DNA of 55,907 bases from a virus (lineage: Duplodnaviria > Caudoviricetes), in the IMG/VR virus record IMGVR_UViG_3300022752_006405, positions 1-55,907 of that record; one strand, 5' to 3'. The notes beneath the pieces were generated by a model that saw only the letters and a program-made list of their open reading frames with translations, had not been told where the DNA came from and ran no database searches. Below, in pieces: positions 1,699 through 23,829 of the stretch; within the stretch, counting starts at the first letter, position 1; every line of letters starts with the position of its first letter. The position numbers were made by a program, and so were the translations under genes.

Positions 1699-1723
1699 TG
1701 ATCGAACTCCTTAATCTCTCACT

Positions 1724-1730
1724 TAACTAT
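1724..1730 (-). promoter_or_regulatory. Putative late-promoter motif ATAGTTA
   Basis: Copy of the recurrent ATANTTA motif, 25 nt upstream of the sheath-2 ATG. Confidence 0.55.
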
Positions 1731-1736
1731 TGCTGA

Positions 1737-4700
1737 TCAGACGAACTCAACACCCGCGGGAGTGATGATAAAATCTACTGCGATGAATTCAACGGCGCGG
1801 GTCGGAACGACCACGATTCGACCGTTGAGTCTGCTCGCAGCGACATCAGCCTGGGTGTTATTGGTTTCATCGCAGATGATCCTGAACTGCTCAATTCCCG
1901 CCTGAGCTCTGATCAAGCTGAGAAGTGGGGTCGCTCGATCAACGAAAGCTCTTCTAGTCGTTGCATCGTTGGGCTCGAAGAGAAGTCCTCGAGCAACGCC
2001 GATGATAACGCGCTTGAGCTCCAGGAAGAGGCGTCGAACGTTAACACGATCGAACGCTGACTTTGAGGTCTGAAGTGTGCGTTGTCCGAAGATCACGAAT
2101 CCGTTTCCTGGGAATGTCGCGATCGGATTGATCAGGTTCTCGTACAGGTAGTCTCTATCCGACGTGCTGAGTCGAACCTCAACGTTTCCTACGAAGTCCA
2201 ACGCCGCGCGGTTAAAGCCCGCGGGAGCGTACCAAGGATACGAGACCCGATCACCGTAGGCCAGCGCGCCGAGCGCTGCGATCGATGCTGGTGCTTTCAC
2301 CCTGCGACCGAATGTGGAATCATTCACGAATACGTCCGGGAAGTATGCAGCGACGTAATTGTTGTTCAGGTTACGTGAGAACAGAGAGTTCGCAGTCTTA
2401 GTAACATTCGGCTTCAGCCCAGAGGAATCTTCGAAGATTCTAACATCAGAGTCGGTGTAACCAGGAATGTCAATTACGTACATTCCCAGCGCGTATGTCG
2501 AAAGACGACGTGCGATGTAATCCGTGACCAGCGGCTCACGGACGCCGGGGATCGAGATCATGTTGACGTTGACAGTGAGCTTCTCTGTCATCATCCTCGC
2601 CGCGGCGCGGTAGGAGTTGACAGCGTTGTTGCTCAGCTTCTCACCGTTTGGATCGTATCCAAGGCCAGACCTGATGACGCCCGCCGCGGTGCTCTGCGCC
2701 AAACCGCCCACCTCAGTCGAGGTTGCACGATCTCCGAGACGTGCAGCGGCTCCATCGAGAATGTTGACACCGTCGAAGCCACCGTAGAAGACGGTGGAGA
2801 ACTTAGCGTACTCTGAGAATCTGTTGAAGGTTGAAGGAGAGCTGGAGAGCAGGGACGCGAAGGTTAGACGTGGGTTGGTCGACATTGAGTCGATGATTCT
2901 GTAATCCTGCGTGTCTGGTGCACCGTTTCTGATGTACGCAGCCTCCTTCATGTGCACGTCCGATGTTCCAGTCAGGTCGCTGACCGTCTGGTTCGAGAGA
3001 GCGACACGTGAGAGCGTGAACTTGTTCGCGTTAAACACGTCGGCATCGGATCCAGTAACAAGCGCGTCAAGCTTCTGAATGCCCTGAAACCTGGAGTACG
3101 AAAGGATCAACGGATTGAACTCGGTTCCATCGTTCGAGTTCATGATGGTATCCAGCGCACGTCCGTCGGAAGTTCCAGAAGGAATGAGCTTTTCGAACTT
3201 GACTCCCCAGTAGTACCTAGAATCTGGAATCTCGAGGATACCCGGCTCTCCGATGTAAGCAGAGCCGTTAACCTCGCCCTTCGTGATCTTGAACCTGAAC
3301 GGGAGGGGTGGAACGATCGCACCGGTGAGCTGTGTGGCGACAGGACTGACACACGTCAGTCGCGGCAACTGGTCGGCACCCGCTCCGAAGATCTTACCCC
3401 CTTCTGCCAACGCGGCGTTCGTATCCGTGAGCGTCTGTGTCGTGCGGATGACCGGAAGACCCCTGAATCCGAACGGAAGGGCGCTCTTCGGTACAACCCC
3501 CGAATCGAGTGTCTGGGAGATTATTACCCTGATCCTGCGGCTTGCGTTGGGGAAACGACCGCTGATCACCAGTCGCTGCTCGGCTTCGTCCGTAGCGTCA
3601 AAGTTGAACGTTACCTTACGATCTCCGATTTTCTTCGCGATGTAATTCGGGCTGTTCGGGTTCAGGTCGCATCCGGTGTAGCTCTCGAGAACCATCGTGC
3701 TGATGTCGTTATCGTACAGATCGCGCACGAGAACGTCGAAGGTTCCGTAAGGATTGCTGGAATCCGTCGATGCCCTAACGTTCGCGATGGAGATCTTGAA
3801 AAGACTGTTGCCGGACGCACCGTCGGTGACTGTCTCGAAGTGGAAGAGATCGTGCTCGAGATTGCCGAATGGCTGCGAAATGATGGCTGGCGTGCGAGCG
3901 GTCGTGTAACGCGTATCGAAACGACCGAAGTTCCCCAGGTAGGTGGAATTGGAACCCGATGCGATGGCGATGCACTTATCGCCCGTTGTATCGAGAGGAG
4001 CGATCTCATCCTCGACGGGAAGGTCGAGGTAAAGAAGATGCTGCTCGTCCTTGAACTTCTTCGGATCCGTGTTGAGAACCTTCCCGAGATAATCCGTGGA
4101 GCTCGGGTCAAGAGAAGCCGTAAGGACGCGGAGACCCGCGTAACCGTCGGTTGTTCCGAACGATGAACCCTCGGAAGAGGAGATAACGAGCTTGAACTTC
4201 TTGTAGGTGGAAGAGGACGTGCTAAGATCAGTTGAAGCAACGTCATCGATGAATGCGCCGGTTCCTGACCACTGAGAGCTTGATCCCGTCATGTCGAGCA
4301 GCATTCCGCGAGCCCCCGTCGGGAACATCAGGACACCACGAACGATATTCAGCGTGTCCCCGAGACCCGGATTGAAGCTCGGATTATCGCTGAAGATCGG
4401 GAACCCTCTCCACTCGGACGGTGCGTCGGCAGAAGCCGGCAGCTTGTGGCGGGCGACGATGAACTGCACAGTGTTGGTCTTACGACCGTCGAAACCAGCC
4501 TCATCACCACCTGTGAAATTTGTCTTGGTGATCTCACCGGCGCCCACGTTCGTGAGTGTAACGGTCGTGTTCCCAGCTACACCAGGAACGACCTGCGTCA
4601 ACGTTAAGGCTGGACCGGCACGAACGACTGTAATTTTCGAAGATCCATGTCCATTGGCGGACGCTATAGCAGTCTTGAGCTCCTCGGCAAGAGTATGCGT

Positions 4701-5255
4701 GTCCGTTGGGCCGCCCACGTCAACGATGACGTCCGTTCCGTCTAGAGCTCCTGTGGTTCCGACCTTAAAGACGTAGGTCTTGCTGGTTCCATCAGCGCTG
4801 ATGAGCGCGACTTTCATATTTCCAGCGGTCTGAATCGCTGAAAAATCAACCATCGTTACGGTCGCTGTCGCAAAGTCGGATGTTCCGTCATTCGGAAGGC
4901 TCACGGCCTGCCCAGCGAGCTTGAAGCCCGCGTTTCTCACGATGCCCTGGGCAACCGTCGTGGACACATCACCCGCTGTCGCGTTGGCGCCAGCTCCTAG
5001 AACTCGAATGAACGTGAGGGCTCCCTTGTGCTTCAGCCACTCATTGGCAGCGTACGTTGCGGGACGATCCGGGTCGAGTCCGCCGAATCGAGCCTCAAAG
5101 TCTGCAAAAGATGCCACGGTCGTCGGCACGAACGCCGGCCCCGAGGCAGCCGCGCCGATGATTCCACCCGGGATACCGGATGGGGCCGCGCCCGGCGCTG
5201 TAAGCTCAATCTCCTGCTCGAAGAATCCAGGAGAGCGAAAGGTCTGTTCCGACAT
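1737..5255 (-). CDS. gp18: Contractile tail sheath protein (T4 gp18-like)
   Basis: N-terminal SPGFFEQEI and GPAFVP. C-terminal PWYAPAGFNR, INPIATFPG, IFGQRTLQ, DRVNVRRL, CDETNNT and PTRAVEFIAVDF are sheath hallmarks. SD AGGAG. Confidence 0.95.
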   Translation of the reverse strand: MSEQTFRSPGFFEQEIELTAPGAAPSGIPGGIIGAAASGPAFVPTTVASFADFEARFGGLDPDRPATYAANEWLKHKGALTFIRVLGAGANATAGDVSTTVAQGIVRNAGFKLAGQAVSLPNDGTSDFATATVTMVDFSAIQTAGNMKVALISADGTSKTYVFKVGTTGALDGTDVIVDVGGPTDTHTLAEELKTAIASANGHGSSKITVVRAGPALTLTQVVPGVAGNTTVTLTNVGAGEITKTNFTGGDEAGFDGRKTNTVQFIVARHKLPASADAPSEWRGFPIFSDNPSFNPGLGDTLNIVRGVLMFPTGARGMLLDMTGSSSQWSGTGAFIDDVASTDLSTSSSTYKKFKLVISSSEGSSFGTTDGYAGLRVLTASLDPSSTDYLGKVLNTDPKKFKDEQHLLYLDLPVEDEIAPLDTTGDKCIAIASGSNSTYLGNFGRFDTRYTTARTPAIISQPFGNLEHDLFHFETVTDGASGNSLFKISIANVRASTDSSNPYGTFDVLVRDLYDNDISTMVLESYTGCDLNPNSPNYIAKKIGDRKVTFNFDATDEAEQRLVISGRFPNASRRIRVIISQTLDSGVVPKSALPFGFRGLPVIRTTQTLTDTNAALAEGGKIFGAGADQLPRLTCVSPVATQLTGAIVPPLPFRFKITKGEVNGSAYIGEPGILEIPDSRYYWGVKFEKLIPSGTSDGRALDTIMNSNDGTEFNPLILSYSRFQGIQKLDALVTGSDADVFNANKFTLSRVALSNQTVSDLTGTSDVHMKEAAYIRNGAPDTQDYRIIDSMSTNPRLTFASLLSSSPSTFNRFSEYAKFSTVFYGGFDGVNILDGAAARLGDRATSTEVGGLAQSTAAGVIRSGLGYDPNGEKLSNNAVNSYRAAARMMTEKLTVNVNMISIPGVREPLVTDYIARRLSTYALGMYVIDIPGYTDSDVRIFEDSSGLKPNVTKTANSLFSRNLNNNYVAAYFPDVFVNDSTFGRRVKAPASIAALGALAYGDRVSYPWYAPAGFNRAALDFVGNVEVRLSTSDRDYLYENLINPIATFPGNGFVIFGQRTLQTSKSAFDRVNVRRLFLELKRVIIGVARGLLFEPNDATTRRAFVDRATPLLSLIRAQAGIEQFRIICDETNNTQADVAASRLNGRIVVVPTRAVEFIAVDFIITPAGVEFV

Positions 5256-5289
5256 CAGTTGCTCCTAATCTAATGGGATAATCAGATGT

Positions 5290-5296
5290 TAAGTAT
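5290..5296 (-). promoter_or_regulatory. Putative late-promoter motif ATACTTA
   Basis: Intergenic ATANTTA copy 34 nt upstream of the sheath-1 ATG. Confidence 0.55.
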
Positions 5297-5320
5297 CACG
5301 TAGCGGGTGAAACTTCGACA

Positions 5321-6586
5321 TCATTTTAGATCCTTGTCGGTCTTAAATGTTTTCACCACGGTCGTGAACACTTCCTCTCCGTGGGCGCTGGATATGCGAC
5401 GTGCCTTCACGGTTACATCCATGGGTTTGCCTGTGATGGGATCCTCCTTGAGGTCCCTGGCGATGCTGGGTGTCACGAGTGATGTGGATTCCGTACCTCC
5501 TACGGCTGTCGTTAGAGGTTGATGGAATGAAGTTCCTTGGCGCTGCGATCCTGCCGCCGTCCGCTCCGATTGGGATGTGGATGACGTCCCGATGGCTCCA
5601 ACAGAATCATTATCGTCCACCGTCGCGACTGAGTCAAGAATCCTAGAGTCTATCCTCATATCCGTGACGTTACCAGTTGCTTCGGGCTTCGGCACGCCAT
5701 CAACAATACCAAATGAGAATTGGGTCGCTGAGAGAGTCCTACGGAGGCCGTTTGGAATCCCTGGGGCATCCGGAAGAACTATGAATGCAGGAACGGTGAC
5801 GGTCATCGAGTGCTTGATCGCCCTCTCGTCATCGGACATATTGTCGAATGTCGTGTCCGATGATATATCGGGTTCGAATGTCGCGTTGAACCAGTATCCG
5901 CTTGATGTCTCAATTCGATAAGATCTCGCGCGAACGTTATGATATCCACTCATGATCGTCGTCAGCAGGTTGTTGCTGTGCTGCATGAACTGGGTCCACA
6001 ACGTGATCTCATACTTCGCAGTGAAGAACTTCGGGACGGGTATTGATATCGTCTCGTAAATTCCAACTCCTAGATTAGGTTCCAGCTCCCGACCACCTGT
6101 CCTGCGCCCTGAGCTGATCTGCGGATCACGTCGTGTTCCCGTTCCCGGAGCGCTTGCATTCTTAAAATTTGTGGAGTTGACGAGACGCTGGTAGACGGCG
6201 TCGTCCTTGGAGATCCTTCTCTTTATATCAATCGTGCCGATGTCACCCATCTCGATGGACTTCGAAGCTTGCTGCTCGATACCTGTCCTCGAGATCGTGA
6301 CAAGCGGCAGGATCAGCGCTCCGTTCTTATCGCGGAGTGGTTCCTTTCTTCTGGTGATCGCGAATCGCTCACCTGTCGCGAAGATGACAGGAACCCGCTT
6401 AGTGCTTCCGTCCTTTGTTTCATAAATGAGCGGAAGATCCCGGTTGAAAAGCTCAAAGAGAGCACGATCGACGTCCTCAAGACCACAGCTAGGAACCTTG
6501 TAATCATCAGGAACATTGCTACCCTCGTACCCCAATTGTATGGCGTCACGCCCGTATCGTTTGCCTACCGAGTATCTTGTGCTCAT
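5321..6586 (-). CDS. Tail terminator / sheath-stabiliser-like protein (T4 gp15-like)
   Basis: VPVIFATGERF, LPLVTISRTGIE and PVPKFFTAKYEITLWT resemble the gp15-like pattern. Position between neck genes and sheath matches T4 order 13-14-15-(18). Confidence 0.65.
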   Translation of the reverse strand: MSTRYSVGKRYGRDAIQLGYEGSNVPDDYKVPSCGLEDVDRALFELFNRDLPLIYETKDGSTKRVPVIFATGERFAITRRKEPLRDKNGALILPLVTISRTGIEQQASKSIEMGDIGTIDIKRRISKDDAVYQRLVNSTNFKNASAPGTGTRRDPQISSGRRTGGRELEPNLGVGIYETISIPVPKFFTAKYEITLWTQFMQHSNNLLTTIMSGYHNVRARSYRIETSSGYWFNATFEPDISSDTTFDNMSDDERAIKHSMTVTVPAFIVLPDAPGIPNGLRRTLSATQFSFGIVDGVPKPEATGNVTDMRIDSRILDSVATVDDNDSVGAIGTSSTSQSERTAAGSQRQGTSFHQPLTTAVGGTESTSLVTPSIARDLKEDPITGKPMDVTVKARRISSAHGEEVFTTVVKTFKTDKDLK

Positions 6587-7236
6587 TTATCACCGTAGAA
6601 CGATGAACTTATACCATCAGGTGAAACCTTGTTAGGACCTGTGAGAGGAGCGTCCAGCTTTCCATCCGCCTGCAGCTCGCGGCGATCCGCGGTCTGACCA
6701 AGCTCGTTGGTGGATGCGCCGCGCTGCTGCACGAATGTATCTTGCACCACGCGCTCCGTCTCGAGTGTCTGGGCAGCAGGGCCCTGGACCATCCGATCGA
6801 TGAGACCTTCCCGTGCCTGCTTGCCTGCCAGCTTGTATCCAGTGATATGCTCAACCTGTCCGAAGATCTTACTGATCGTGACGACCTGCGTTATCTCAAA
6901 GAATACTGAGCCATATGAGAAGAAGTCTCCCATCTTCAAATGTAGACCCTTGTCAATGAGATCCTGCGCGTGCACTCGAGCCTCGATCGAATGAAATTTC
7001 TCGCTGCTGAATTTGTTCGTTTTGATCTCACCCGCTGACCATTCAACAAGAGCGTCGACCTCCAGCGGCGGGTCGAATACCTTCTCGACAGACTCCTCGT
7101 AAACGTCATGGACTTGAGTGACATCAGTTCGTACAGCGTAATAGTAGATCTTCTGCCCGATCACGTCCTTGATGACCTCTTTGGTAAGATCACTGATCAG
7201 GTCAAGCTCTCTGGGAGTTATGAAAAGACGAGCCAT
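6583..7236 (-). CDS. Neck / head-closure protein (T4 gp14-like)
   Basis: GQKIYYY...VYEES..KVF and GDFFSYGSVFFEI pattern; synteny; ATGA overlap with the next gene. Confidence 0.65.
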   Translation of the reverse strand: MARLFITPRELDLISDLTKEVIKDVIGQKIYYYAVRTDVTQVHDVYEESVEKVFDPPLEVDALVEWSAGEIKTNKFSSEKFHSIEARVHAQDLIDKGLHLKMGDFFSYGSVFFEITQVVTISKIFGQVEHITGYKLAGKQAREGLIDRMVQGPAAQTLETERVVQDTFVQQRGASTNELGQTADRRELQADGKLDAPLTGPNKVSPDGISSSFYGDK

Positions 7237-7240
7237 TACA

Positions 7241-8413
7241 TCACCCTATCGTGATCACGCGTCCCATTGGGACCGGGATCGACTTCAGGATCTTCTGAAC
7301 GTTATCAATTTCCGTCGCCTTCGTCTCGATCAGCTTGTTGTAGGTCATCGAATCGAGCATTTCTTTCAGATCGGTTCGAAGTTTATCCTTCTCTTCCTTG
7401 GCAGCTGACTTGAGATCTCCTCCATCCAACTGTAGGTCACCGCCCGGAATTGGAACTGAGTTGAACTTCGATCTTATCATTCCAAGCAGCTCCTTGGAGA
7501 GAGCCAAAGTATACTGCCTGACCCACTGCCGGGCGAGGGAATTAACTTTCGAGTATATGAAATTGCCATAGGGAACGTTGGAAAGATTGGAGACACCACC
7601 GATCGAATTGTCGGTAAAAGCTGGATTCAACGGGTTCGATTCGAAACCGACCCGTATCCACAGCTTTAAAGGATTCTCTGCCGTGGGGGTCGGAAAGATC
7701 CTAAGTTTGGTTCCGGTCACACGATAGCTGTAATTCGAGCGACGGACGCGATTCGAGATGTTCATCTGCCCGCCGCGGAGAATATCCTCGAACACCGGTA
7801 GGACATAAAAGACGGTCTCAGGCGTGAATGATTCGAACGAGAACTCGTTGTTGAGGTAGTTGATTGCCGATGTCGTATCGAAGAATCGATAGGCCGCCGA
7901 TGGGTTAAAGTGCATGATCTCGAACACCCTCATCTTCCTGTGCTCAGGATTGAGGGACGAGCTCACGACGGGGGTTCCTGTCGATGGATCGAGCAGCTCA
8001 GAGTAGAGATCGTAGTCCTGCACGTTCTGTCGAAGTTGTATCGAACCTGACACGGAATTGTAAGTGCCTCCCAATCCAGCTTCGACAGCGTATGGTTCCG
8101 CGAGTCTTATGATGTAGTTGAGGGTATCACGTGGTAGCTTCTGGGTTGCCTCATTCAAGCTGCCAGTCTGCATGCCAAGAAGAGAGAGAAGCTGACTTCT
8201 CGCCTGGTACTGGTTGACGATGGATCCATACTCGAGGAATGCCTCCTCAAAGCATGCCCAGATCTGCTTTTTTGTTAATTCCACAGAGAGGACGTCATCT
8301 CCCAACTTGCGCTTCACGAATGTGATCATGGCGTCCGCCTCTGTCTGGAACTCAGAGTCAGAGTCAAAAAAGCCGAACGGCGTTGGGTTTAACGTGGTCA
8401 TGAAAGTTGACAC
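7241..8413 (-). CDS. Neck / head-tail adaptor protein (T4 gp13-like)
   Basis: RKLGDDVLSVELT..Q and WVRQYTLALSKELLG.IRSKF..VPIPGGDLQLDG match gp13-like motifs. GTG start with AGGAGG. Confidence 0.8.
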   Translation of the reverse strand: MSTFMTTLNPTPFGFFDSDSEFQTEADAMITFVKRKLGDDVLSVELTKKQIWACFEEAFLEYGSIVNQYQARSQLLSLLGMQTGSLNEATQKLPRDTLNYIIRLAEPYAVEAGLGGTYNSVSGSIQLRQNVQDYDLYSELLDPSTGTPVVSSSLNPEHRKMRVFEIMHFNPSAAYRFFDTTSAINYLNNEFSFESFTPETVFYVLPVFEDILRGGQMNISNRVRRSNYSYRVTGTKLRIFPTPTAENPLKLWIRVGFESNPLNPAFTDNSIGGVSNLSNVPYGNFIYSKVNSLARQWVRQYTLALSKELLGMIRSKFNSVPIPGGDLQLDGGDLKSAAKEEKDKLRTDLKEMLDSMTYNKLIETKATEIDNVQKILKSIPVPMGRVITIG

Positions 8414-8448
8414 GGCCGACCTCCTAATCTAAATAGGAGGTCGGCCGT
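8412..8448 (-). promoter_or_regulatory. 15-bp perfect hairpin sequestering the SD and GTG start of the neck gene, overlapping a promoter-motif variant CTATTTA (8430-8436)
   Basis: Minus strand reads ACGGCCGACCTCCTA-TTTAGAT-TAGGAGGTCGGCCGT-G. The arms are 8448-8434 and 8426-8412. Confidence 0.75.
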
Positions 8449-8474
8449 TGTTTGCCGAGCTAGCTGATCAAGAT

Positions 8475-9620
8475 TTACAGCAGGACCCGCGCGCGATTCT
8501 CCGGTGTGACATTCTCTGATAGAAGCTTGCGAGCGTACGATATCGTGCACACCTCAAGCGCGAGCCTGTCTAGGGCGGCTCGTGCCACAGACTCGGGCAT
8601 CGCCTGCCCGGCTGCCTTAACCGCGCCGCCTGCGGCTATGAGACCGTCACCGACTGCAATAACGGCAGCCTTAATCGCAGCGCCCAGCGCCCGTATTCCA
8701 GCGAGCCCAAGCCCAAGGAGGCTCGTGATCACTGCGCCGATGAGACCCGCGACGGCTGCAATTGCTCCTCCTATAGCCGCGAGAACCGCTCCGACACCAG
8801 CAACGACGGCGCGAAGCATGTTACCGACGCTCGCGAATCCTGCTTGGATCGTTGCACCGGCAGCAGAGAAAGCATTCGTGAATGCAGCTTCAATAGCCGT
8901 AGCGAACGCACGATAGCTGCACTTATTCGGACCTTGCACGAAACCTGCTTTTGCGGCGCGGATTCCCTGCGCGAGTGTCCCAATATAGGTAAGACACGCT
9001 CCGATGAGCTCATTCGCGCCTCCAACAGCTGCATCCGCGAGACCAGCAAAGAATCCGCCGCCCTCTCCCATCGTTGCAGCTCTCTGACCTGCGGCGATGA
9101 TGTCGGCGGGCTGCACTGGAAGCGCATCCTGGATCATCAGATCTACGTAAAAAGCAGCCGCCGTCGTGTTCCTCACGACGCTTCCAAGCTTCTGCTTGAG
9201 ACCTGCACTCATCGATGCGAGATTACATCCAGGAAGCGTGCCTGCACCGCCACCGGCCGCTGCTCCACCACCACCACCACCACCGCCAGAAGTTGGAATC
9301 AGATTTCCTGACTTCGGGATAATTCTTCCGATCGACGACTCGACGGGGCCCGATATGACCTTAATCTTACCGCCGCCGACGTCCTCATATGTGAATGGAT
9401 CACCGAATCCAGTTCTGTAAGCACCGGGCCCGCGGTTCGCGTCGTCAAGCACGAAATAAGGATCATCCTTGTAACGTGCTGTGTAGTTTGCCTGTACGCC
9501 CTTCTCCTTCAACCAGTCGGATGTTTTCTTCCCGGTATTCACAGCAGCCTCGGTGAGGCGTGACGAACGACGAAGCTCCTCATTCACGATCGCGCGGAGC
9601 TGTCTCTCTGAAATTCTCAT
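8475..9620 (-). CDS. Probable nested in-frame product (381 aa), candidate internal head / ejection protein
   Basis: In-frame ATG 9620 (MRISERQLRAIVNEE) with SD AAGGAG at 9629-9634 and motif ATAATTA at 9640-9646. Confidence 0.6.
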   Translation of the reverse strand: MRISERQLRAIVNEELRRSSRLTEAAVNTGKKTSDWLKEKGVQANYTARYKDDPYFVLDDANRGPGAYRTGFGDPFTYEDVGGGKIKVISGPVESSIGRIIPKSGNLIPTSGGGGGGGGAAAGGGAGTLPGCNLASMSAGLKQKLGSVVRNTTAAAFYVDLMIQDALPVQPADIIAAGQRAATMGEGGGFFAGLADAAVGGANELIGACLTYIGTLAQGIRAAKAGFVQGPNKCSYRAFATAIEAAFTNAFSAAGATIQAGFASVGNMLRAVVAGVGAVLAAIGGAIAAVAGLIGAVITSLLGLGLAGIRALGAAIKAAVIAVGDGLIAAGGAVKAAGQAMPESVARAALDRLALEVCTISYARKLLSENVTPENRARVLL

Positions 9621-11435
9621 ATCTGATTCTCCTTGTTTGTAATTATTCGTACGAATTGATTCTAGAAGGGCGCGAAGTGCTAATCTTCTGCCGTCTTGAA
9701 TATCTCCATGCTGGCCTTTAATTATACTCCAATACTTGTCTTTCATTTCCTGACTTAAGCTTTGCGGTACGTAGCGATCGAACGCGCCTTTATCATCGTC
9801 AGCTATGAACTGTCGCATCTTTGTTCCTGAGATGTCGACGGTCTCAGTCCTTGGAACTCCGACCTGTTGCAATTTAGCGAGGGCTTCCGGATCCCTGATT
9901 CTCTCCGCCATCTTCGCGGGAGAGTACTTGACCCTAGCGTCCTCCTCGTCGGAGTAGAATACGAATTTACTGACCACGTTCTTCAGCTCTTTCATCTTGT
10001 CTACTGCGATATCGAGCGGTGACTCCGAGGTGATGATAAGCGTTGCGTTCGGATAGTCACGATGAAATTGCGGTTCCAGTACCGCTTTCCATGCATCGAT
10101 CATGATTCCCGATGGGATCTCACCACGACCAGCAGTCGAGGTGATGATGAGCGCCTCATCGCACTCACGACGTGTTCTATCTATCATCTGCCAGTGGCCC
10201 TCGTGCACAGGCTTACCAGCGAGGACGAAGATGCCGACGCTGATACCGTTTTGAGTTCCAATTGCAAGTCTTCTCATGACCTGGGATTTGGTCGTTAGAA
10301 ACAGGTCTTCCTGACGCTGAATCAGAGATTTTGGATGTGATAGGGCCCCGAGTCGATTGGAGATAGCTGCGTCGAAGTAACACTCTTGATGGATGTCCTG
10401 TAGGATCTCGTCAAACTCCGCCTCTGGCACATTCCTTCGCTGCTGCGGTGCGAATTCCTGCGCTATTTCACCCGCGATACCGACGACGGTGTTCCAGTAC
10501 TCTTGCTCTGCCTCCTGGGTCTCAGCTCGAAACTTCTTCTTTATATTGAGGCGATGCTGCTTATCGTGTTGATCGTAGCGTAGAGCTTTATAAAGTGCAC
10601 CCGCGGCCGACGTGCTGAAAACAGCGCCTTCGGCAGCAGGGTACTCACCCTTTTTCGAGACGTCCGCATCCGTGGAGAGGGTCGTCTGAAAGTCAGAAAA
10701 CATCGAGTATATTGCGTTGACGATCTTCAATGGTCGATCAGGACCGTTATCGTCATACGCCGCTTTTAGATTATCAAAAAGGTTCACATAACGATTTTGG
10801 ATCATCCGGCTTCTGATCCCGTTCCTAAACTCTTCGAGACTTGAAAGACGACCTTCAAACAGAACGGGATAGGTGCTTACGCCCAGAGTATTCGCGTATG
10901 TTGTAAGGTTCGGTTGTCCATCCTCGGGAGTAATATCGGTGACCAGATGGGTACCAGTTGCCTTGTATCTTGATTTTCCGTACAGGGTGAGGAAAATGCC
11001 GTGCTTCTGTGGGTATTCACGGCTGATCGTAGGTTTTCTCTGCACAAACTCAAGAAAGAATTCAGTCCCGGGTGGAATCGAAGCGGTGTTCGAATGAACT
11101 CTGGCCATGTGCGAATGAACAAGGGAGTACTGAGCCGTTCCACTTGAGGAGGACCTGACCTCCTCCTCACGTGATGAGAGGCCACGTGCTTCGCCCGGGT
11201 AAATGATGTTTCCTTTGTACGCGATATACCAGTTTTTCGTGTAATCGTCGGGGTCGAAAGGATTGTTGCGACGAAGAAGGGTGAGCTTTGTTCCGTCGAT
11301 CTTTTCGACAATTTTTATATTGGGGTCGTTCAAGAATGCTTGGGCTTTTCTTCGATCATTCGCAAGAGCACGCCCTTCCACACCGTCGCGGGCCAACGCA
11401 TCCTTGAGATCTTCTATGGATATGTTTGTCGACAT
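8475..11435 (-). CDS. Multidomain protein: KxDG ligase-type adenylation domain + HxGH (cytidylyltransferase/NMNAT-like) nucleotidyltransferase + Gly/Ala-rich hydrophobic C-terminal part
   Basis: VEKIDGT (motif I), FFLEFV (III), AEGAVF (IV), LYK (V). Then GIFVLAGKPVHEGH and DISGTKMR, a poly-Gly linker and long apolar helices. Confidence 0.72.
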   Translation of the reverse strand: MSTNISIEDLKDALARDGVEGRALANDRRKAQAFLNDPNIKIVEKIDGTKLTLLRRNNPFDPDDYTKNWYIAYKGNIIYPGEARGLSSREEEVRSSSSGTAQYSLVHSHMARVHSNTASIPPGTEFFLEFVQRKPTISREYPQKHGIFLTLYGKSRYKATGTHLVTDITPEDGQPNLTTYANTLGVSTYPVLFEGRLSSLEEFRNGIRSRMIQNRYVNLFDNLKAAYDDNGPDRPLKIVNAIYSMFSDFQTTLSTDADVSKKGEYPAAEGAVFSTSAAGALYKALRYDQHDKQHRLNIKKKFRAETQEAEQEYWNTVVGIAGEIAQEFAPQQRRNVPEAEFDEILQDIHQECYFDAAISNRLGALSHPKSLIQRQEDLFLTTKSQVMRRLAIGTQNGISVGIFVLAGKPVHEGHWQMIDRTRRECDEALIITSTAGRGEIPSGIMIDAWKAVLEPQFHRDYPNATLIITSESPLDIAVDKMKELKNVVSKFVFYSDEEDARVKYSPAKMAERIRDPEALAKLQQVGVPRTETVDISGTKMRQFIADDDKGAFDRYVPQSLSQEMKDKYWSIIKGQHGDIQDGRRLALRALLESIRTNNYKQGESDMRISERQLRAIVNEELRRSSRLTEAAVNTGKKTSDWLKEKGVQANYTARYKDDPYFVLDDANRGPGAYRTGFGDPFTYEDVGGGKIKVISGPVESSIGRIIPKSGNLIPTSGGGGGGGGAAAGGGAGTLPGCNLASMSAGLKQKLGSVVRNTTAAAFYVDLMIQDALPVQPADIIAAGQRAATMGEGGGFFAGLADAAVGGANELIGACLTYIGTLAQGIRAAKAGFVQGPNKCSYRAFATAIEAAFTNAFSAAGATIQAGFASVGNMLRAVVAGVGAVLAAIGGAIAAVAGLIGAVITSLLGLGLAGIRALGAAIKAAVIAVGDGLIAAGGAVKAAGQAMPESVARAALDRLALEVCTISYARKLLSENVTPENRARVLL
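9640..9646 (-). promoter_or_regulatory. Intragenic putative late-promoter motif ATAATTA
   Basis: 19 nt upstream of the internal ATG 9620, in a locally AT-rich patch. Confidence 0.5.
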
Positions 11436-12967
11436 CAGCTACCCCACACAGCAGCTTCGATGAGCCTGCCAATACGCCTCATCCTCGATTCATCAACTCT
11501 GGGTTGATCATCATCTTCTACGAAACCTGCCTGTCCACGAATTTTGTATCTTGAGTAGAAGTCATTCTTCATCGCCTCCACATTAATGGTGGAGGCCTCA
11601 GCTTCGGGAAGATGTTGACGAAAAACTTCAAGCACCTTGTCCTTCACACTGCGATCCTCCTCTGGATCTGTTGCTGAGAGTTGTTGCCCACGATCTCCGA
11701 AAAAGCGATCGACCATCTCCTCATATACTTTCACGATTTCCTGTGGCGTGAATCTATTTTTAAGCAACTCCAACGCACCGAGAAATGATCCGAAATTTTC
11801 GAGGTCTTCCTCGGTCGCCGGTGGATTTACACCCATCAGATTATCAAAGATAAGCTTAACATCACGTATTGCATTAGTTCTCTCAGCGCGCTTCAGATAT
11901 TTGTAAACTTCATCGCCGTTGTAAGTCCAATCGAGACGTTGATAACGATCGCCCAAACCAGTTACAAGATCAAGTGTCCGAACTGGTCTGAGGGGAGCAG
12001 GCATTTTTGATTCATGACCTATCTCAATCCTGACTCTTCTTTCTGCTTCTTCACGCGCCTTTTCAGGGTTCTTACGCTTTTGAGCAGCTAGAATCTCACT
12101 CTCACGCTGACTCACTCGCTTCTCAATTTCCTCTGGCGTCGGAGGAGCGTAGCTTGGGTTTGCCGTCATTTTTACCGCGGGTTTCTCCGCCGTCGCTGTC
12201 GGAGTAGCCTCACGAGCTCCGACTGGTGGTGGAGACCTCACGGCTGCAATCGAGAACAGCAGAACTTTATGAGCGAGACCCTTAACGCCCGCTATGACGT
12301 CCCGCCACGCCGAAGAGTATGAGAACTTTGCCCATTCAGAGGGTCGTCCGCTCTCGTACTCAGAACCTTCGAAGTCAATCTGGAAGAATGTGTCTCCCTC
12401 ACCCTCTGGGGCTTGGGAGTCCCACGTGTAGGCGAAAAGAGCGTTGATCTGGTGCGATCCTGGTGATTTTTTGTTATGACCGACATAGGCGATCTTGGGC
12501 GTGAGCTGCGCGTCTTCACGTCTGTTGAGAGTTTGAAACAATCTGTCCATTTTATCGACTGGTACCGTAAGGTCGATATCTCCTACCGCGGGTTTGTATG
12601 TCACGAATTCATCATCCGACAACGTCTCAGGAGGTGCAAAAAGATGTGAGGATGATCCGTTAAACGCGAATCCTGACCCGAGGATATCATCACGCTGCGT
12701 GCGATCCCAGATAGGCTCCCCGTGATCTCTCTCGAACTCTTCGTCAAGCTTACGAAGCATCTCGATCACGTCAGTCCTGAGCTGCTGCCTCGTGATCCTA
12801 CCGGATCTTAGATCGATCTTCTCGGCGTACGCTTCACGACCGCGGAAAGTTTTAATTTGCTCGCCTCCGACGACGAGGCCAGTGGCAGGGTCACGAACAA
12901 GAGCACGGGTGTTTCCGCCCTCGTTGATTGAACCTGAATCGAAGATAAACTTAGCGATGCTAAACAT
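11435..12967 (-). CDS. DNA polymerase-beta superfamily nucleotidyltransferase
   Basis: FNGSS...GDIDL (GS + DxD) and a third acidic residue in FQIDFE. N-terminal INE-GG resembles a prohead-protease site. TGATG coupling to the next gene. Confidence 0.7.
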   Translation of the reverse strand: MFSIAKFIFDSGSINEGGNTRALVRDPATGLVVGGEQIKTFRGREAYAEKIDLRSGRITRQQLRTDVIEMLRKLDEEFERDHGEPIWDRTQRDDILGSGFAFNGSSSHLFAPPETLSDDEFVTYKPAVGDIDLTVPVDKMDRLFQTLNRREDAQLTPKIAYVGHNKKSPGSHQINALFAYTWDSQAPEGEGDTFFQIDFEGSEYESGRPSEWAKFSYSSAWRDVIAGVKGLAHKVLLFSIAAVRSPPPVGAREATPTATAEKPAVKMTANPSYAPPTPEEIEKRVSQRESEILAAQKRKNPEKAREEAERRVRIEIGHESKMPAPLRPVRTLDLVTGLGDRYQRLDWTYNGDEVYKYLKRAERTNAIRDVKLIFDNLMGVNPPATEEDLENFGSFLGALELLKNRFTPQEIVKVYEEMVDRFFGDRGQQLSATDPEEDRSVKDKVLEVFRQHLPEAEASTINVEAMKNDFYSRYKIRGQAGFVEDDDQPRVDESRMRRIGRLIEAAVWGS

Positions 12968-12974
12968 GCAAATC

Positions 12975-12981
12975 TAAATAT
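12975..12981 (-). promoter_or_regulatory. Putative late-promoter motif ATATTTA, probably giving a leaderless mRNA
   Basis: Only 7 nt before ATG 12967, no SD, immediately after the capsid terminator. Confidence 0.55.
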
Positions 12982-12993
12982 GTCTCACAAACT

Positions 12994-13021
12994 AAAACGG
13001 CCACCTCTTTCGAGGTGGCCG
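12994..13021 (-). terminator. Rho-independent terminator after the major capsid gene
   Basis: 10-bp stem CGGCCACCTC/GAGGTGGCCG with a GAAA loop, followed by TTTTAGTTT on the minus strand. Confidence 0.85.
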
Positions 13022-13048
13022 CCCTAGATTGACCCCGCGGTCAGAACA

Positions 13049-14932
13049 TCAGATGATGTTCATGTCGAGGCAGGTGACCGTTCCGTAGAAGTCGGAGCGG
13101 ACCATCTTCTTGCCGTAGCGGGTCATGACACCCTTGCGTGGCGTGAAGTCCTCGGGCGCGAAGATCGTCGGAGTGACGATGAGCGGGACGTAGGGGGCGT
13201 AGACGTAGCCGGTCTCGAGGTAGCTGCCGCCCTTGAAGCCGACGAGGATCTTGTTACGGGGGAAGTAAGGATCCTTGTAGACCGTGAAGCGGTTCGAGAG
13301 AGTACCGACCTTCTCCGCGCCGATCGAGAACGGGGCGCCGACCTGGCCGGAGCCGTCGATGCTGTAGCTCGGACGGTAGTACGTGGAGGCCTCGAGGATC
13401 GTCGCGACGTCCGGGCCGACAACGATGAAGTTGGCGGAGCCGCGGAGGGTCTTGCGGTGGATCTCGTTGGCGACGTCGATGATCGTCTCGGTGAGCGTCT
13501 CGTACCACTCGCGGACCGTACCGGTGAAGTTCGGGCCGGGCTGCGTAGCGCCGCTGCGGGTGATTTCGGTGCCTGTGGTCTTATTGACGAACTTGCCAGG
13601 AGCGCGGCTCCAGAAGTAGTTCGCACCGTTCGCCTGGGTGAGGAGGTCGTTCAGGATCTCGCGGTCGAGCTCGAGAGCGATCTGCTCGGAGAGGATCTGG
13701 GTGAGCTCAACCTCAGCGTCGATGCTGTGGTAAGCGTTCAGATCCTGTGCGAGCTCCGGAGACCAACGAGCGCGGAGCTTGCGGGTCGTCGCGGTGACGG
13801 CGATCGACTCGATCTTGATGTCGATCTCGGGGATGACCGGGGAGGGGGTCGCGCCGAAGTTCGACTCGAAGACCGGAATGGTGACCGTGGAGCCGGTGGA
13901 GCTCTCAACGTCGAGCGCCGAGGCGAGCGGGTAGCTGAGCGAGCAGCTCGCCGCCATGTTCGCAGCCGCAGTACCGGTCACAACGCAGAGAAGGTGCGTA
14001 CCGGAGAGCGGGGTCGGGGTGAATGTTGATCCGTCCCAGGATCCGATCTGGTTCAGTCGACGAAGGTTGAGGACATTAGTGCCACCCTGGAAACCCTCAC
14101 CCCATGCGCGGGTGTTGAGAGGGTTGTTCACCGTGCCAGCCTTGGCGACGAGAGCAAACTCCTTCGCGAGAGTGTGATCAGCGGAGGAAGAGATGTTACC
14201 GAGCGTAACGACGGCGAACTTGAACTGGGCTGTTGCCACACCAGCAGTTCCGTTCTCGATCAGGCTTGTGAGAGCAGGATCGAAACCGAGGAGACGACCA
14301 TCCGTGCCTGTGGCGAAGATGTAGTTCGTCGCTGCGAAGGCGCCCGAGCCACCGAAGGCGCCGGAAGCAGCCACCGTGACGTCAGTGTGTCCGTGGACGC
14401 GGCTGAAGCTGACACCGGCGAGGTCGTACATACCGCCCGTCGCGAGAGAGCCTGTCTGGATGCCCTTGCCCGCTGGGTTGTTGTAGATCGACTGGCCCGC
14501 AGTGTAGGTCGAGGCCGCAGCGTTGTCGCTGAGGTTCGGACCTGCGAGGCCGCCCACGTTGCTACCGTAGGTGTAATCCAGGTAGAACAGGAGACCCGAG
14601 GGAAGGCTCATCGGCTGGATCGAGACGAGCTCGTTCGCCACGAGGCCGCCGAAGACGCGACGGACGATGGGGAACGCGATGTTCGAGAAGCCGCGGATGT
14701 CGCCGTTGCCAGCGGCGGTGGAGCCGCCACCTGACGAGAGAGCGTTCGACTCACGGAGGAGGTTAGCAGTCTGGTTCTCGAGGAGGCGAGCCATGTTCTC
14801 GCGATTGGTGCCCTCGAGGCCACGAAGCAGGCCGGTGCGGCTCCACTTCTCAACGAGGCGGCTGTTCTCCGCCCCAACGTCACGCCCGCGGATTCCCTCG
14901 GCGAGCTGATCTAGTGTGAAAGTCCTTGACAT
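13049..14932 (-). CDS. gp23: Major capsid protein (T4 gp23-like)
   Basis: VSIQPMSLPSGLLFYL, TRKLRARWSPELAQDLNAYHSIDAE, YVYAPYVPL and FTPRKGVMTRYG; strong C/G-ending codon bias. Confidence 0.97.
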   Translation of the reverse strand: MSRTFTLDQLAEGIRGRDVGAENSRLVEKWSRTGLLRGLEGTNRENMARLLENQTANLLRESNALSSGGGSTAAGNGDIRGFSNIAFPIVRRVFGGLVANELVSIQPMSLPSGLLFYLDYTYGSNVGGLAGPNLSDNAAASTYTAGQSIYNNPAGKGIQTGSLATGGMYDLAGVSFSRVHGHTDVTVAASGAFGGSGAFAATNYIFATGTDGRLLGFDPALTSLIENGTAGVATAQFKFAVVTLGNISSSADHTLAKEFALVAKAGTVNNPLNTRAWGEGFQGGTNVLNLRRLNQIGSWDGSTFTPTPLSGTHLLCVVTGTAAANMAASCSLSYPLASALDVESSTGSTVTIPVFESNFGATPSPVIPEIDIKIESIAVTATTRKLRARWSPELAQDLNAYHSIDAEVELTQILSEQIALELDREILNDLLTQANGANYFWSRAPGKFVNKTTGTEITRSGATQPGPNFTGTVREWYETLTETIIDVANEIHRKTLRGSANFIVVGPDVATILEASTYYRPSYSIDGSGQVGAPFSIGAEKVGTLSNRFTVYKDPYFPRNKILVGFKGGSYLETGYVYAPYVPLIVTPTIFAPEDFTPRKGVMTRYGKKMVRSDFYGTVTCLDMNII

Positions 14933-14987
14933 TTTATTTTCTCCAATTTAGAAAAGATTTAGAAACTGATCAAAACCAACGGGGCAA

Positions 14988-16784
14988 TCACTTGCCCGAC
15001 TTGATACCTGCGAGGACAGCCCAGCGATCCACCTCGACGGATTCATTCAGGCTAGCAGCAGGGCTAGCTGACCGCGTCGATCTGGAGGACGAACCAAGGA
15101 TCCGACCCTCAGTCATCGTGCCTGACTTCGACTTGAGAGACTCAGTCAGGCTGGTGTAGAGAAGCTTTGCCTCTCGCACCGACTTCGCAGCGTCGAGCGA
15201 CTCAACGATCGCTCTCTGCTGACGTGGGGTGAGGTCCCGGTTCTGCATCAGCTTATTGACATAGAGAAGCTTCGCGTTGAACAGGTTAACCTCCTCGAGC
15301 TGCTCGCGGAGGGCAACAGCCTCCTTGGCAGCCTCAACCAGCTTGGACTTGAGAGCACGATTCATGCGTGCCTCCTCGACCCTGGCATTACGCTCTTCCT
15401 TGGCAGCCTCGGTAGCCTTCTTGGCAACCTTGAGAGCCTTCTCGGCGACCTCCTCGGCCTCCTCAAGCTCGTCCATCTCAGACTCGGAGAGATGATTCAA
15501 CTCATCCGGAAGGCTCTCGACGGAACCACCACCAAAACTCTTGGGCATCGCGTCCTTGATGCCCTTTGCATTCTTACCCTTGGAGCTCTTAGCCTCACGG
15601 AGGCGACGGAGCTCACGACGGAGCATGGACTCATCAACGTGGAAAGTCTTGCTCTCCATCATGCTGTCGTCATCCATCTCGTCAAGCTCGGGATCCATCA
15701 TCTCGTCGAGCTCGGAGTCAGCCATCTCCTCAACGTGATATCCTTCTTCCTCATCGAGGTCAGAATCCATCATCTCATCGAGGTCCATCTCGTCGTACAT
15801 CTCCTCATCGAGATCATACTCAGATGGAGCGGGGGGAGCAGCCGGTGGGGGTTCGGGTGCAACTGGAGCACCAGCTCCAGTATCAGCGACGTCGACCGGC
15901 ATCTCACCGCCGGCTCCCTCGGCACCAGCCTCCATCTCGTCACCGAGATCAACTGTGAAAGTCATTGCCTTGAGCTTCTCTTTGACAGTGTCATCGAGAC
16001 CCTCAAGATCAGCTGGCTCAAACATGAGCTTCGCTTCATTACGAAGGCGAGGCCTTCTCTCCATTTCCTCGAGCAGACGGCGGAACCGCGCGCTAGTTGA
16101 CATATCTCTTATCTCCTTTACGATGCTGTTGAATTTTTTCCTGATCTCAGGAGTGCTACCATTAGATATCATATGATTCCTGAAATCATTGACATTTTTA
16201 ACCAGAATTGCATACGCTGACCTAAAATTCACGCTCTCGGTCAACGGAAGTTTGTGTGAAACTCTCTTGAGAGATTCGAATTGGCGACGAATCTTCCCGA
16301 GCGAGACTCTTTCGCGATGACGCTCTCCTAGAACCATATCAGCCAACGCGTTCAGAGCTTCCTCATTCATCGACACATCGACGTCATCACCCTCAGCTAC
16401 GTCAGCGTCCGCAGCAGCAGATGCCTCACCGTGCTTATCAACGCGAACGTTGATCTTCACCTCTGTTCCGGAGGCAGTTTTGGTTGTCACCGTGTGAGTG
16501 ACCTCCTCATCGGGATCAGGTGCGGGCGCCCCAGGAGCAGCAGCGGCTGCAGGAGCTGGTGCGGCGACAGCAGCAGCAGGATCGTCTGGTAAGGGTTCGA
16601 GATCAAGGTTCGGAGCTTCCTCAGTAGCTTCCTCTTCCTCTCCCTGCTCAGCTAAAATCTGCCGCTCGATCATCCGACGGATCTGCGGTGAAATTGACTC
16701 GATAATCTTATTTCTTGCATTTCTCTCCGCCATCTCCTTGAGAGACTTGGCGTCTGCGATCGCTTCATCATAAAGATTCGACAT
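14988..16784 (-). CDS. Prohead core / scaffolding protein (T4 gp22-like)
   Basis: Directly upstream of the capsid gene. MSNLYDEAIADAKSLKE start, acidic low-complexity middle, coiled-coil C-terminus (EVNLFNAKLLYVNKL...DRWAVLAGIK). Confidence 0.75.
   Translation of the reverse strand: MSNLYDEAIADAKSLKEMAERNARNKIIESISPQIRRMIERQILAEQGEEEEATEEAPNLDLEPLPDDPAAAVAAPAPAAAAAPGAPAPDPDEEVTHTVTTKTASGTEVKINVRVDKHGEASAAADADVAEGDDVDVSMNEEALNALADMVLGERHRERVSLGKIRRQFESLKRVSHKLPLTESVNFRSAYAILVKNVNDFRNHMISNGSTPEIRKKFNSIVKEIRDMSTSARFRRLLEEMERRPRLRNEAKLMFEPADLEGLDDTVKEKLKAMTFTVDLGDEMEAGAEGAGGEMPVDVADTGAGAPVAPEPPPAAPPAPSEYDLDEEMYDEMDLDEMMDSDLDEEEGYHVEEMADSELDEMMDPELDEMDDDSMMESKTFHVDESMLRRELRRLREAKSSKGKNAKGIKDAMPKSFGGGSVESLPDELNHLSESEMDELEEAEEVAEKALKVAKKATEAAKEERNARVEEARMNRALKSKLVEAAKEAVALREQLEEVNLFNAKLLYVNKLMQNRDLTPRQQRAIVESLDAAKSVREAKLLYTSLTESLKSKSGTMTEGRILGSSSRSTRSASPAASLNESVEVDRWAVLAGIKSGK
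16163..16169 (-). promoter_or_regulatory. Intragenic promoter-motif variant ATATCTA ahead of internal SD + ATG 16103
   Basis: Same variant as at 33511, followed by AAGGAG-N9-ATG in frame with the scaffold gene. Confidence 0.35.
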
Positions 16785-18029: not shown

Positions 18030-18320
18030 TCAGAGCTGCTCGAGGATACGGGAACGAATTTCCTGACGAGCCTCATTAACCTCGGAGAGTTGCTGCGCAA
18101 GCTCAGCTGCTTCTTTCTGGAGGTTCTTGTAGTGCTGCACTTCCTTGGCGAGAGTGTGCGCCATATCCTTTGCCTCGACCTCTCGAGTCTGCTTCGCGAC
18201 CTTTTCAACGTCCTGCGCCTTGCCGGATGGCTTCTTGGCGCGCGACTTGAGGATCTTCTTCTTCTCCTCGTTGATAATACGACGAAGGATATCAGGCGTG
18301 AGATTTACGACTCTTGACAT
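18030..18320 (-). CDS. Small basic coiled-coil protein, candidate prohead core / internal protein
   Basis: SD AAGGAG; LTPDILRRIINEE helix, Lys-rich stretch, heptad-like C-terminus. Confidence 0.65.
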   Translation of the reverse strand: MSRVVNLTPDILRRIINEEKKKILKSRAKKPSGKAQDVEKVAKQTREVEAKDMAHTLAKEVQHYKNLQKEAAELAQQLSEVNEARQEIRSRILEQL

Positions 18321-23828: not shown

Positions 23829-23829
23829 T

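Follow-up and report, generated by a model that had tools for sequence, protein, structure and literature searches.

Nucleotidyl-transfer enzymes among head genes: a candidate nucleic-acid end-processing module with predicted head targeting in an uncultured T4-like phage

Why would a tailed phage keep a set of nucleotidyl-transfer enzymes between its major capsid gene and its neck genes? The question is raised by a 55.9-kb fragment of an uncultured virus (IMG/VR record IMGVR_UViG_3300022752_006405, 55,907 nucleotides, completeness about 18%; hereafter the window, meaning this whole stretch), in which two genes, A and B, form a unit of their own. Gene A (11435-12967) encodes 510 amino acids (aa), and the long open reading frame (ORF) that follows it (8475-11435, 986 aa) comprises gene B and a C-terminal portion, part C, whose counterparts in related phages are separate genes, here called C-type genes. 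The minus strand carries all large ORFs of the window, and all window features discussed below lie on it. An earlier reading made from the letters of this DNA (the sequence-only reading) had proposed three unrelated nucleotidyl-transfer folds at this locus and a role of the proteins as injected cargo. The answer that we put forward, with about equal expectations of its holding and of its failing, is that A and B form a conserved three-enzyme module of T4-like phages, which acts on broken nucleic-acid ends and which, in this lineage, travels as cargo of the phage head.

Protein A, annotated as of unknown function (phrog_19290), carries the motifs of the Pol-beta nucleotidyltransferase (NTase) superfamily, for which the sequence-only reading had pointed to GS, GDID and QIDF. 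They lie within a catalytic core at residues 99-200 (12368..12673), in the form of NGSS (G104 S105), VGDIDL (G129 D130 D132) and FQIDFE (Q196 D198 F199 E200), and agree with the superfamily signature (hG[GS], [DE]h[DE]h and a third carboxylate), at a spacing of 24 residues between GS and DxD that is longer than usual. None of the motif residues varies across the 43 sequences aligned (43/43); the alignments, for A and for B, reach down to 27-30% identity. The family is large, with 756 representatives (50%-identity clusters) at E up to 0.001 and 490 at 1e-30.

Structure comparison of the A model (predicted local distance difference test score, pLDDT, 87.7) found no close solved relative. The best Foldseek matches, namely TdT, Pol lambda, MenT4 and alarmone synthetases (E 0.03-0.2), all belong to the Pol-beta superfamily, and the structural matches also include Pol beta and mu, cGLR, OAS and TUTases, all at modest scores (E at least 0.03, Z at most 7.7). 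In a comparison with 48,161 chains (VIA), the top eight were all family-X polymerases (Z 6.9-7.7 over 166-192 residues, root-mean-square deviation 3.5-5.2), with alignments that cover model residues 33-396 and Z values, below 8, in the range which the tool calls common or middling. Among predicted viral structures, A matches uncharacterised phage proteins alone, one of them from Agrobacterium phage Atu_ph07, and its atlas neighbours are viral clusters named 'nucleotidyltransferase family', one with PF01909 in 33% of its members. Sequence libraries contributed little: a profile search of PDB sequences with A gave a single chance match (E 0.34), Pfam returned chance-level matches alone for A and B (VLTF3, Olduvai and ATP-sulfurylase, the last at E 0.061), and NCBIfam had no match for A or part C. 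The Pol-beta fold of A is therefore supported by its invariant motifs together with weak-to-middling structural matches, and its nearest, weakly matching relatives appear to be the family-X polymerases. RlaP (PF10127, curated cut-off 23 bits) was considered as an identity for A and rejected: hmmscan gave no match at E up to 1, and no PF10127 was found in six frames of the window (E up to 0.01), with positive controls in B. subtilis and M. jannaschii.

The second enzyme occupies residues 1-392 of B (10260..11435) and is predicted to be an Rnl2-like ATP-dependent polynucleotide ligase, consisting of an adenylyltransferase domain and a helical C-domain. The ligase or capping-type motifs that had been noticed from the sequence (EKIDG, EF, EGAV and K) correspond to EKIDGTK (E44 K45 D47 G48, with K45 as the motif I lysine), LEF (E129 F130), AEGAV (E269 G270) and K283, and the residues of motifs I, III, IV and V are invariant in 32/32 sequences. 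The model of B (pLDDT 84.6) supports a clear ligase fold: T4 Rnl2 leads the Foldseek matches (2hvr_A at E 1.3e-6, 1s68 at 4.2e-5 and 2hvq at 5.8e-5, all with probability 1.00), and Trl1, archaeal Rnl3, Naegleria Rnl5 and T4 Rnl1 are among the other structural matches. Neither hmmscan, at E up to 1, nor a six-frame search detected the RNA ligase family PF09414 in the window's B; a relative with 62% identity reaches 27.5 bits, the cut-off being 27, and two relatives carry PF09414 in precomputed tables. In T4 itself (locus L036, 12637-16008), rnlB is a neighbour of gene 24 and runs in the same direction as 24.2, 24.3, hoc and inh, which include a head decoration protein and a prohead-protease inhibitor, so a ligase next to head genes is not unique to the lineage of the window.

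Residues 393-580 of B (9696..10259) form the third enzyme, a predicted small HIGH-motif (HxGH / ISGTxxR) NTase of the size class of phosphopantetheine adenylyltransferase (PPAT), nicotinic acid mononucleotide adenylyltransferase (NaMNAT) and nicotinamide mononucleotide adenylyltransferase (NMNAT). The two motifs noted earlier, KPVHEGH (H411 G413 H414) and ISGTKMR (S536 G537 R541), are again invariant (32/32). By structure (VIA), residues 397-575 align at Z 11.4-12.6 with 140-162 of the roughly 160 residues of PPAT, NadD and NadM/NMNAT targets, and Foldseek finds NMNAT, NaMNAT and PPAT at E 6e-5 to 7e-4. By sequence, the archaeal and NadR-type NMNATs are nearest in the PDB (E 0.014-0.3 over about 35 residues), and the NCBIfam NMNAT models give 14.6-15.1 bits (E 0.013-0.015) against cut-offs of 127-341. 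The models thus support a clear HIGH fold, and the structural search found all three of the folds read from the motifs, that of A only weakly, with catalytic residues conserved throughout the homologs of both proteins. No description of a ligase-HIGH fusion was found in the literature searched, in which some papers were judged by their title. A predicted complex of A (residues 17-485) with B residues 393-605 scored 0.00, which gives no verdict, and no conclusion is drawn from it.

That these three domains belong together is indicated by their distribution in other genomes. In each of the 20 loci long enough to show it, A lies directly upstream of B; a neck gene comes after B in 23/23 loci, with or without an intervening C-type gene, and the capsid gene lies upstream in all 11 loci reaching it. 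In addition, the domains are fused in other orders. Four single proteins of 927-985 aa from an AT-rich lineage (30% GC) join ligase, HIGH domain and A, and are encoded a short way upstream of terminase and portal, with one 199-aa ORF before the terminase; sixteen longer proteins carry A at the N-terminus and a weak HIGH match farther on, and one longer protein has an EKIDGS ligase motif followed by A. Fusions in several orders, together with synteny, argue that A, the ligase and the HIGH domain work together, and the view of them as one functional system is supported. The finding is real and coherent, and the gene-neighbourhood survey makes the linkage within the unit stronger than the sequence-only reading could know.

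Among the records of isolated phages, 21 of the 23 that have A also carry B: 15 are from Campylobacter phages, in which the two genes lie apart, and six from Vibrio phages, in which they are 2 kb apart and near an Rnl1 and a CCA-adding enzyme. In Vibrio phage Va1 (locus L001, 984-6083), the surroundings form an RNA-repair neighbourhood: within a few kb of the leaderless A and B homologs lie an Rnl1-like ligase and a CCA-adding tRNA nucleotidyltransferase. Xanthomonas phage BUDD (locus L037, 6007-9356) has an A homolog, two proteins without assigned function (333 and 286 aa) and a stand-alone HIGH NTase (Pfam CTP_transf_like at E 1.7e-6; hhalign to the B HIGH domain at E 1.8e-4). The 333-aa and 286-aa proteins have no Pfam match and no hhalign match to the B profile, and no ligase was identified in the BUDD operon; these two proteins may replace it.

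The link of the module to the phage head starts from the N-terminus of A. A 16-residue leader (12920..12967; MFSIAKFIFD...INE) precedes the invariant residues G17 G18 N19 and is predicted to be a capsid-targeting peptide with a prohead-protease cleavage site at its end; the first 17 residues of A are disordered in the model. Across 74 A homologs, 48 have a leader, and 48/48 of these end in [LIVM]xE/GGN (the slash marks the predicted cut), 23 start with M-GGN and three are truncated at the N-terminus. The longer fused forms obey the same rule (17/17), one of them at an internal domain boundary (RLQE/GGN), and the four ligase-HIGH-A fusions all have [LIVM]xE/[GS]G at the junction. A further 146 representatives comprise 61 that obey, 76 that start with M-GGN and nine that differ, namely six with M directly before GGN, which look like mis-called starts, one with LLE/GGGN and two without GGN. 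The leader rule is therefore without true exception in the leader-bearing homologs of A. The leaders range from 5 to about 45 residues and are diverse in sequence, so that their constant three-residue ending is under selection.

This ending is that of a known protease site. The T4 prohead protease gp21 cuts after L/I-X-E, T4 internal proteins carry capsid-targeting leaders of 10-19 residues which are removed at a gp21 site, and T4 Alt is trimmed at both ends, as described in the accessible text of PMC9026906. The window encodes a gp21-type prohead protease (18839-19453; phrog_207 at E 4.8e-50; 35% identity to T4 gp21, E 2e-25). Furthermore, the A-family leaders MKSFKQFLLE, MKKFKQFLKE and MKRFNEYLIE resemble MKTYQEFIAE of T4 IPII/IPIII (from the T4 record), and this likeness to the capsid-targeting sequence (CTS) covers residues 4, 7, 8 and 10, the positions that matter according to the same text (PMC9026906). 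The A homolog CPT_0100 of CP220, with a leader of 11 residues, starts with MKLSELMFILE/GGN, and the window's capsid protein has L-R-E/S near the position at which T4 gp23 has L-T-E/A.

The sequence-only reading had listed three protease-like sites, all of which are present: INE/GG (A residues 14-18), LLE/S (B residues 590-593) and LTE/A (residues 627-630 of the long ORF). Both proteins carry an [LI]xE within a few residues of the C-terminus, and in B an [LIVM]xE lies 4-13 residues from the C-terminus in 54/54 scorable homologs of the clade (0.46 expected per 30 residues), counts which are not independent since the homologs are related. From these sites and late expression that reading had proposed packaging and injection with the DNA; the sites stood, and for packaging and injection the support that has been added is comparative in kind, namely the leader rule, the CTS-like leaders, the gp21 homolog and the fusion to a CTS-bearing protein. 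Thus, the head targeting of A and B is supported by comparison, and their cleavage and loading are predicted.

The fusion concerns part C, a Gly/Ala-rich hydrophobic protein of head-internal type (residues 606-986 of the long ORF; 8475..9620), which had been taken for a hydrophobic tail of the enzyme. This view changes with the relatives: a fusion is seen in none of 23 related loci, of which 10 carry an additional gene between those of the ligase and the neck and 13 do not. In the window, the C-terminal tail of B (9621..9695), with L-L-E/S and a short basic tail, continues in frame without a stop; the B/C junction reads ...AACAAGGAGAATCAGATATG, where relatives have a stop, GGAG and ATG. Contigs of three studies all show the same junction, and although this DNA may itself stem from one of these studies, the junction is no assembly slip. 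An AAGGAG Shine-Dalgarno-like site (9629..9634) lies 8 nt 5' of an internal ATG (9618-9620), which suggests that part C is perhaps also translated on its own.

The bodies of C-type genes vary widely, and what they have in common is an N-terminal motif, M-x-I-S-E-x-x-L-R-x-I-V-x-E-E. A small hidden Markov model (HMM) built from the N-termini of the relatives' C-type proteins scores 15.9 bits at residues 607-624 of the window's long ORF, where a targeting-like motif (ISERQLRAIVNEELRR..., 9549..9617) ends in L-T-E/A; the order in the window is thus LLE/S of B, then the targeting motif of C, then LTE/A. For a 96-aa protein whose gene lies between those of the protease and the scaffold, the same HMM gives 9.0 bits; 20 shuffled proteomes reach 4.4 at best. 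Small proteins encoded in that interval of the window (18030-18320 and 18371-18838) start with a motif of the C-type kind (…LTPDILRRIINEE… and MTRSELKDIIKECILE), as do small proteins of the protease-scaffold interval in loci L017-L020 and L025, and the A leaders of P0042 and P0047 contain the C-type motif itself. The motif, judged by this distribution, may be a lineage-specific prohead-core targeting motif. Eight C-type proteins were scanned, and PG_binding_1 (E 9e-10) was found in one and LysM (E 2e-4) in another, in keeping with proteins that exit the head and encounter the cell wall. A second C-type gene lies between the capsid gene and A in L007 (465-1427, with the LysM domain) and L010 (706-1896), and with such extra genes in relatives the capsid-neck stretch looks like a variable cargo island. 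A head-protein N-terminal motif at the C-termini of A and B was tried as a further candidate and dropped, at HMM scores of at most 0.8 bits.

How could such a system work? In the proposed mechanism, A, with a putative palm-plus-thumb arrangement nearest to family X, would extend a 3'-OH end by one or a few nucleotides, the ligase of B would form Lys45-AMP and seal 3'-OH/5'-PO4 breaks, and the HIGH domain would perform an accessory adenylyl transfer. A first guess for the latter, made because its nearest sequence relatives are NMNATs, would be the formation of NAD+ or a like dinucleotide from nicotinamide mononucleotide (NMN) and ATP. The gp21-type protease would remove the 16-residue leader of A after I-N-E, leaving a GGN N-terminus, and B would reach the head through its fusion to a head-internal-type protein with its own targeting motif and L-T-E/A. 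Loading into the prohead is proposed on account of this leader and this fusion: the enzymes would be placed in the prohead core, trimmed, ejected with the DNA, and could then act before phage genes are expressed. The substrates, as the sequence-only reading had also concluded, are not nameable from sequence alone, and the order of the reactions is likewise put forward as a suggestion.

Several points weigh against a head-borne module for broken ends. The unit is without the kinase, phosphatase or (cyclic) phosphodiesterase that would heal the ends left by toxin RNases. The structural matches of A all stay below Z 8, in the common range; an hhalign comparison of the B profile with T4 Rnl2 gave no match (probability 0.6%); and the role of the HIGH domain is a guess, with PPAT, NadD and NadM tied by structure and the sequence matches below curated cut-offs. 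As for the head, a CP220 virion gel with 11 major bands listed does not have the A and B homologs among them, and the accessible part of the CP21 paper does not mention such homologs. About half of the A family has no leader (76/146 representatives, and Vibrio phage Va1), so that packaging is no family-wide property and head loading would be a lineage-specific addition. B lacks an N-terminal leader in this clade, [LIVM]xE is a short pattern which occurs once per 65 residues in these proteins, and the C-terminal helix of A scores an insignificant 0.8 bits against the head-protein motif.

The same enzymes could serve DNA instead of RNA, as a repair and joining kit in which a family-X-like polymerase fills or adds and the ligase seals breaks in the injected genome caused by restriction or nicking; this we regard as improbable, though it is the alternative that survives best. 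The family-X identity of the top eight structural matches of A speaks for it, end-joining polymerases often add ribonucleotides, and a nick is sealed by Rnl2-type ligases when its 3'-OH strand terminates in ribonucleotides. In addition, neither the window nor four related records (103-172 kb) yielded another DNA ligase (PF01068, PF01653); those records, however, are only 18-51% complete, and CP220 has a separate putative DNA ligase. The likeness of A to family X is one of Z values below 8, an 8-kDa or helix-hairpin-helix domain was not identified (no domain-wise search of the N-terminal region of A was made), and the best matches of the B ligase are all RNA ligases. When five phage records were searched for DNA ligases, NadV and a P-loop kinase, the sole match was an AAA_33 kinase in G001, and given the 18-51% completeness of the records such absences mean little.

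The leader can also be read in another way, namely as a late-activation switch: A and B would then be an ordinary late repair system of the cytoplasm, in which the prohead protease, by cutting [LIVM]xE/GGN, turns A on. Prohead proteases can activate Pol-beta-type CD-NTases by cleavage, according to the accessible text of PMC12991175, and the invariant GGN after the cut, along with the many leaderless M-GGN forms, suggests that a free N-terminus matters; the missing N-terminal leader of B also fits. Yet in length and at the key positions several leaders agree with the T4 capsid-targeting sequence, the genes lie among head genes in two distant lineages, and the enzyme in the window is fused to a head-internal-type protein. 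We hold this explanation to be improbable as well, by a shade the more so of the two; activation and packaging are, moreover, compatible and not mutually exclusive.

If the rebuilding of NAD+ were central, the HIGH domain would be an NMN adenylyltransferase that counters NAD-depleting defences, with the other two enzymes as accessories. Its nearest sequence matches are archaeal and NadR-type NMNATs, its second motif has the SGT form, and phages are described as carrying NadM or NadR with NadV for NAD+ salvage in the accessible text of PMC9503650. According to the same text, every NadM-bearing phage also has NadV (PMC9503650), which counts against this idea, given that the NAPRTase/NadV family was not found in five records, all of them partial. 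The NMNAT matches, furthermore, lie far below curated cut-offs, PPAT and NaMNAT tie with NMNAT by structure, and it would be left unexplained why a ligase and a Pol-beta NTase are constant partners of the domain, so that a central role in NAD+ metabolism seems quite unlikely. Least credible, and barely worth entertaining, is a nucleotidylylation of host proteins or small molecules for take-over, comparable to ADP-ribosylation by T4 Alt, which can draw on Alt as an injected enzyme trimmed at both termini, on the [LI]xE near both C-termini here and on the protein- and small-molecule-modifying enzymes among Pol-beta NTases, but for which a ligase fold with complete ligase motifs, arguing for polynucleotide joining, and the polymerases and RNA 3'-end NTases as best matches of A are poor precedents.

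The borders of the locus agree with the description of A and B as a separate unit behind the capsid terminator, located between a hairpin 3' of the gp23-type capsid gene and a hairpin 5' of the neck gene. The first is an intrinsic-terminator-like hairpin with a U-rich tail (12985..13031), recognised by reading the sequence and by folding: a stem of 16 bp at about 12992-13027 is followed by UUUUAGUUUG, and its folding energy of -32.3 kcal/mol (z -5.43) was reached by none of 200 shuffles. It was not picked up by a simple terminator consensus scan, and the consensus scans for sigma-70 and terminators stayed at chance level (6 found against 3.8 expected, and 9 against 6.6). The two ORFs of the unit share base 11435, the junction reading ...AGCTGATGTCG, which is the TGATG overlap described before. 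The motif noted at 12975 is TATTTAGATT, just 5' of the ATG of gene A (12971..12980); an exact-match search of the window found exactly two copies, the other at 8426-8435 just 5' of the neck gene. With one mismatch, the window has six matches where 3.3 are expected, a count which is also reached in 10 of 100 shuffles, so that only the two exact copies are notable. Considered as a candidate T4-type late promoter, TATTTAGATT is the reverse complement of TCTAAATA, whereas TTCTAAAT-like words occur 5' of the capsid gene in the opposite orientation. The strong hairpin that closes the unit (8410..8451; 14 bp, -33.6 kcal/mol, z -7.0) abuts the GTG of the neck gene, has the second TATTTAGATT copy within its loop and the AGGAGG of the neck gene within its 3' arm, and may gate translation of the neck gene or terminate the A-B unit.

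The ORFs of the window make up a T4-type morphogenesis module. Besides the protease, it includes a terminase (22233-23873), a portal (20275-22194), an acidic scaffold-like protein (14988-16784), the Gp23-family major capsid protein (13049-14932; Pfam E 4.6e-76), the neck/adaptor-like gene with its GTG start (7241-8413) and a sheath gene (1737-5255), all on the minus strand. There is no close relative among isolated phages, the top capsid match being an uncultured huge phage at 38.6% identity, and contigs with this stretch come from lake, freshwater and drinking-water metagenomes. The G+C content is 0.55-0.59 in the capsid and tail part (1-16000) and 0.43-0.45 at 34000-55907, with genes on the same strand throughout. 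An ORF at 24501-27623 (minus strand, 1040 aa) combines an SbcD-like part (residues 1-352) with an SbcC-like part (363-1030) and thus fuses two nuclease subunits; an SbcD-SbcC-type fusion is also found in locus L033 (1060-4263).

Few phage enzymes are known to be injected, among them T4 Alt, the virion RNA polymerases of N4 and phiKZ, and the Dar proteins of P1. A broader claim, that many T4-like lineages load a whole NTase-ligase-adenylyltransferase set into the capsid via T4-type leaders and inject it with the genome, as the first injected machine for nucleic-acid repair or joining, is made tentatively, and we lean somewhat against it. If it held, it would give the long-unexplained Rnl2 class of phage RNA ligases a biological setting and would define a new class of cargo for counter-defence or genome care in the first minute of infection. 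For the large and unnamed A family, the leader rule would offer a predictor, from sequence only, of which members are head cargo.

Among known systems, the closest described logic is that of RlaP with RNA ligases. RlaP (PF10127; bacteria, jumbo phages and T4 NrdC.11) is a Pol-beta NTase genetically tied to an RNA ligase, and it adds one or two nucleoside monophosphates to damaged RNA 3' ends alongside RNA ligases; tRNAs repaired with it regain function (10.64898/2025.12.29.696909; PMC7824862, accessible text). The NTase and ligase described here are likewise adjacent and translationally coupled, and fused in other lineages; unlike RlaP, A has no PF10127 match and is nearest to family X, the ligase has an extra HIGH domain, and many members bear predicted head-targeting leaders. 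With T4 Rnl2 (gp24.1) and with Rnl5 and Rnl3, the B ligase has invariant motifs I, III, IV and V in common, and T4 Rnl2 provides its best structural match (2hvr), whereas its sequence shows no detectable likeness to that of T4 Rnl2, a HIGH domain is fused to it and its motif V has a single lysine. The HIGH domain matches NadM, NadR, archaeal NMNAT, PPAT and NadD in its HxGH and ISGTxxR motifs and over the whole domain, but differs in sequence scores below the cut-offs, in the absence of a Nudix or kinase partner domain, and in that no NadV was found in the five partial records.

The same logic of filling at a 3'-OH and then sealing is used by the kinetoplastid RNA-editing insertion pair (a terminal uridylyltransferase and an Rnl2-family ligase) and by pairs of a family-X polymerase and a ligase, and the T4 record calls rnlB 'related to RNA editing enzymes'. 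The likeness to these pairs is at superfamily level, and the phage context, the HIGH domain and the head-targeting signals are absent from them. Such signals are found in T4 IPI-III and Alt, which have a short leader ending in L/I-x-E and, in Alt, also an [LI]xE near the C-terminus; the window has a gp21 homolog, and some leaders of the A family nearly match the CTS. The differences lie in the cargo, which here would be nucleic-acid enzymes instead of an ADP-ribosyltransferase or a restriction inhibitor, and in the 16-aa A leader of the window, which is less like the T4 CTS. The A-B module is, in sum, kin to both the RNA-ligase-associated NTases and the capsid-targeted cargo of T4 type.

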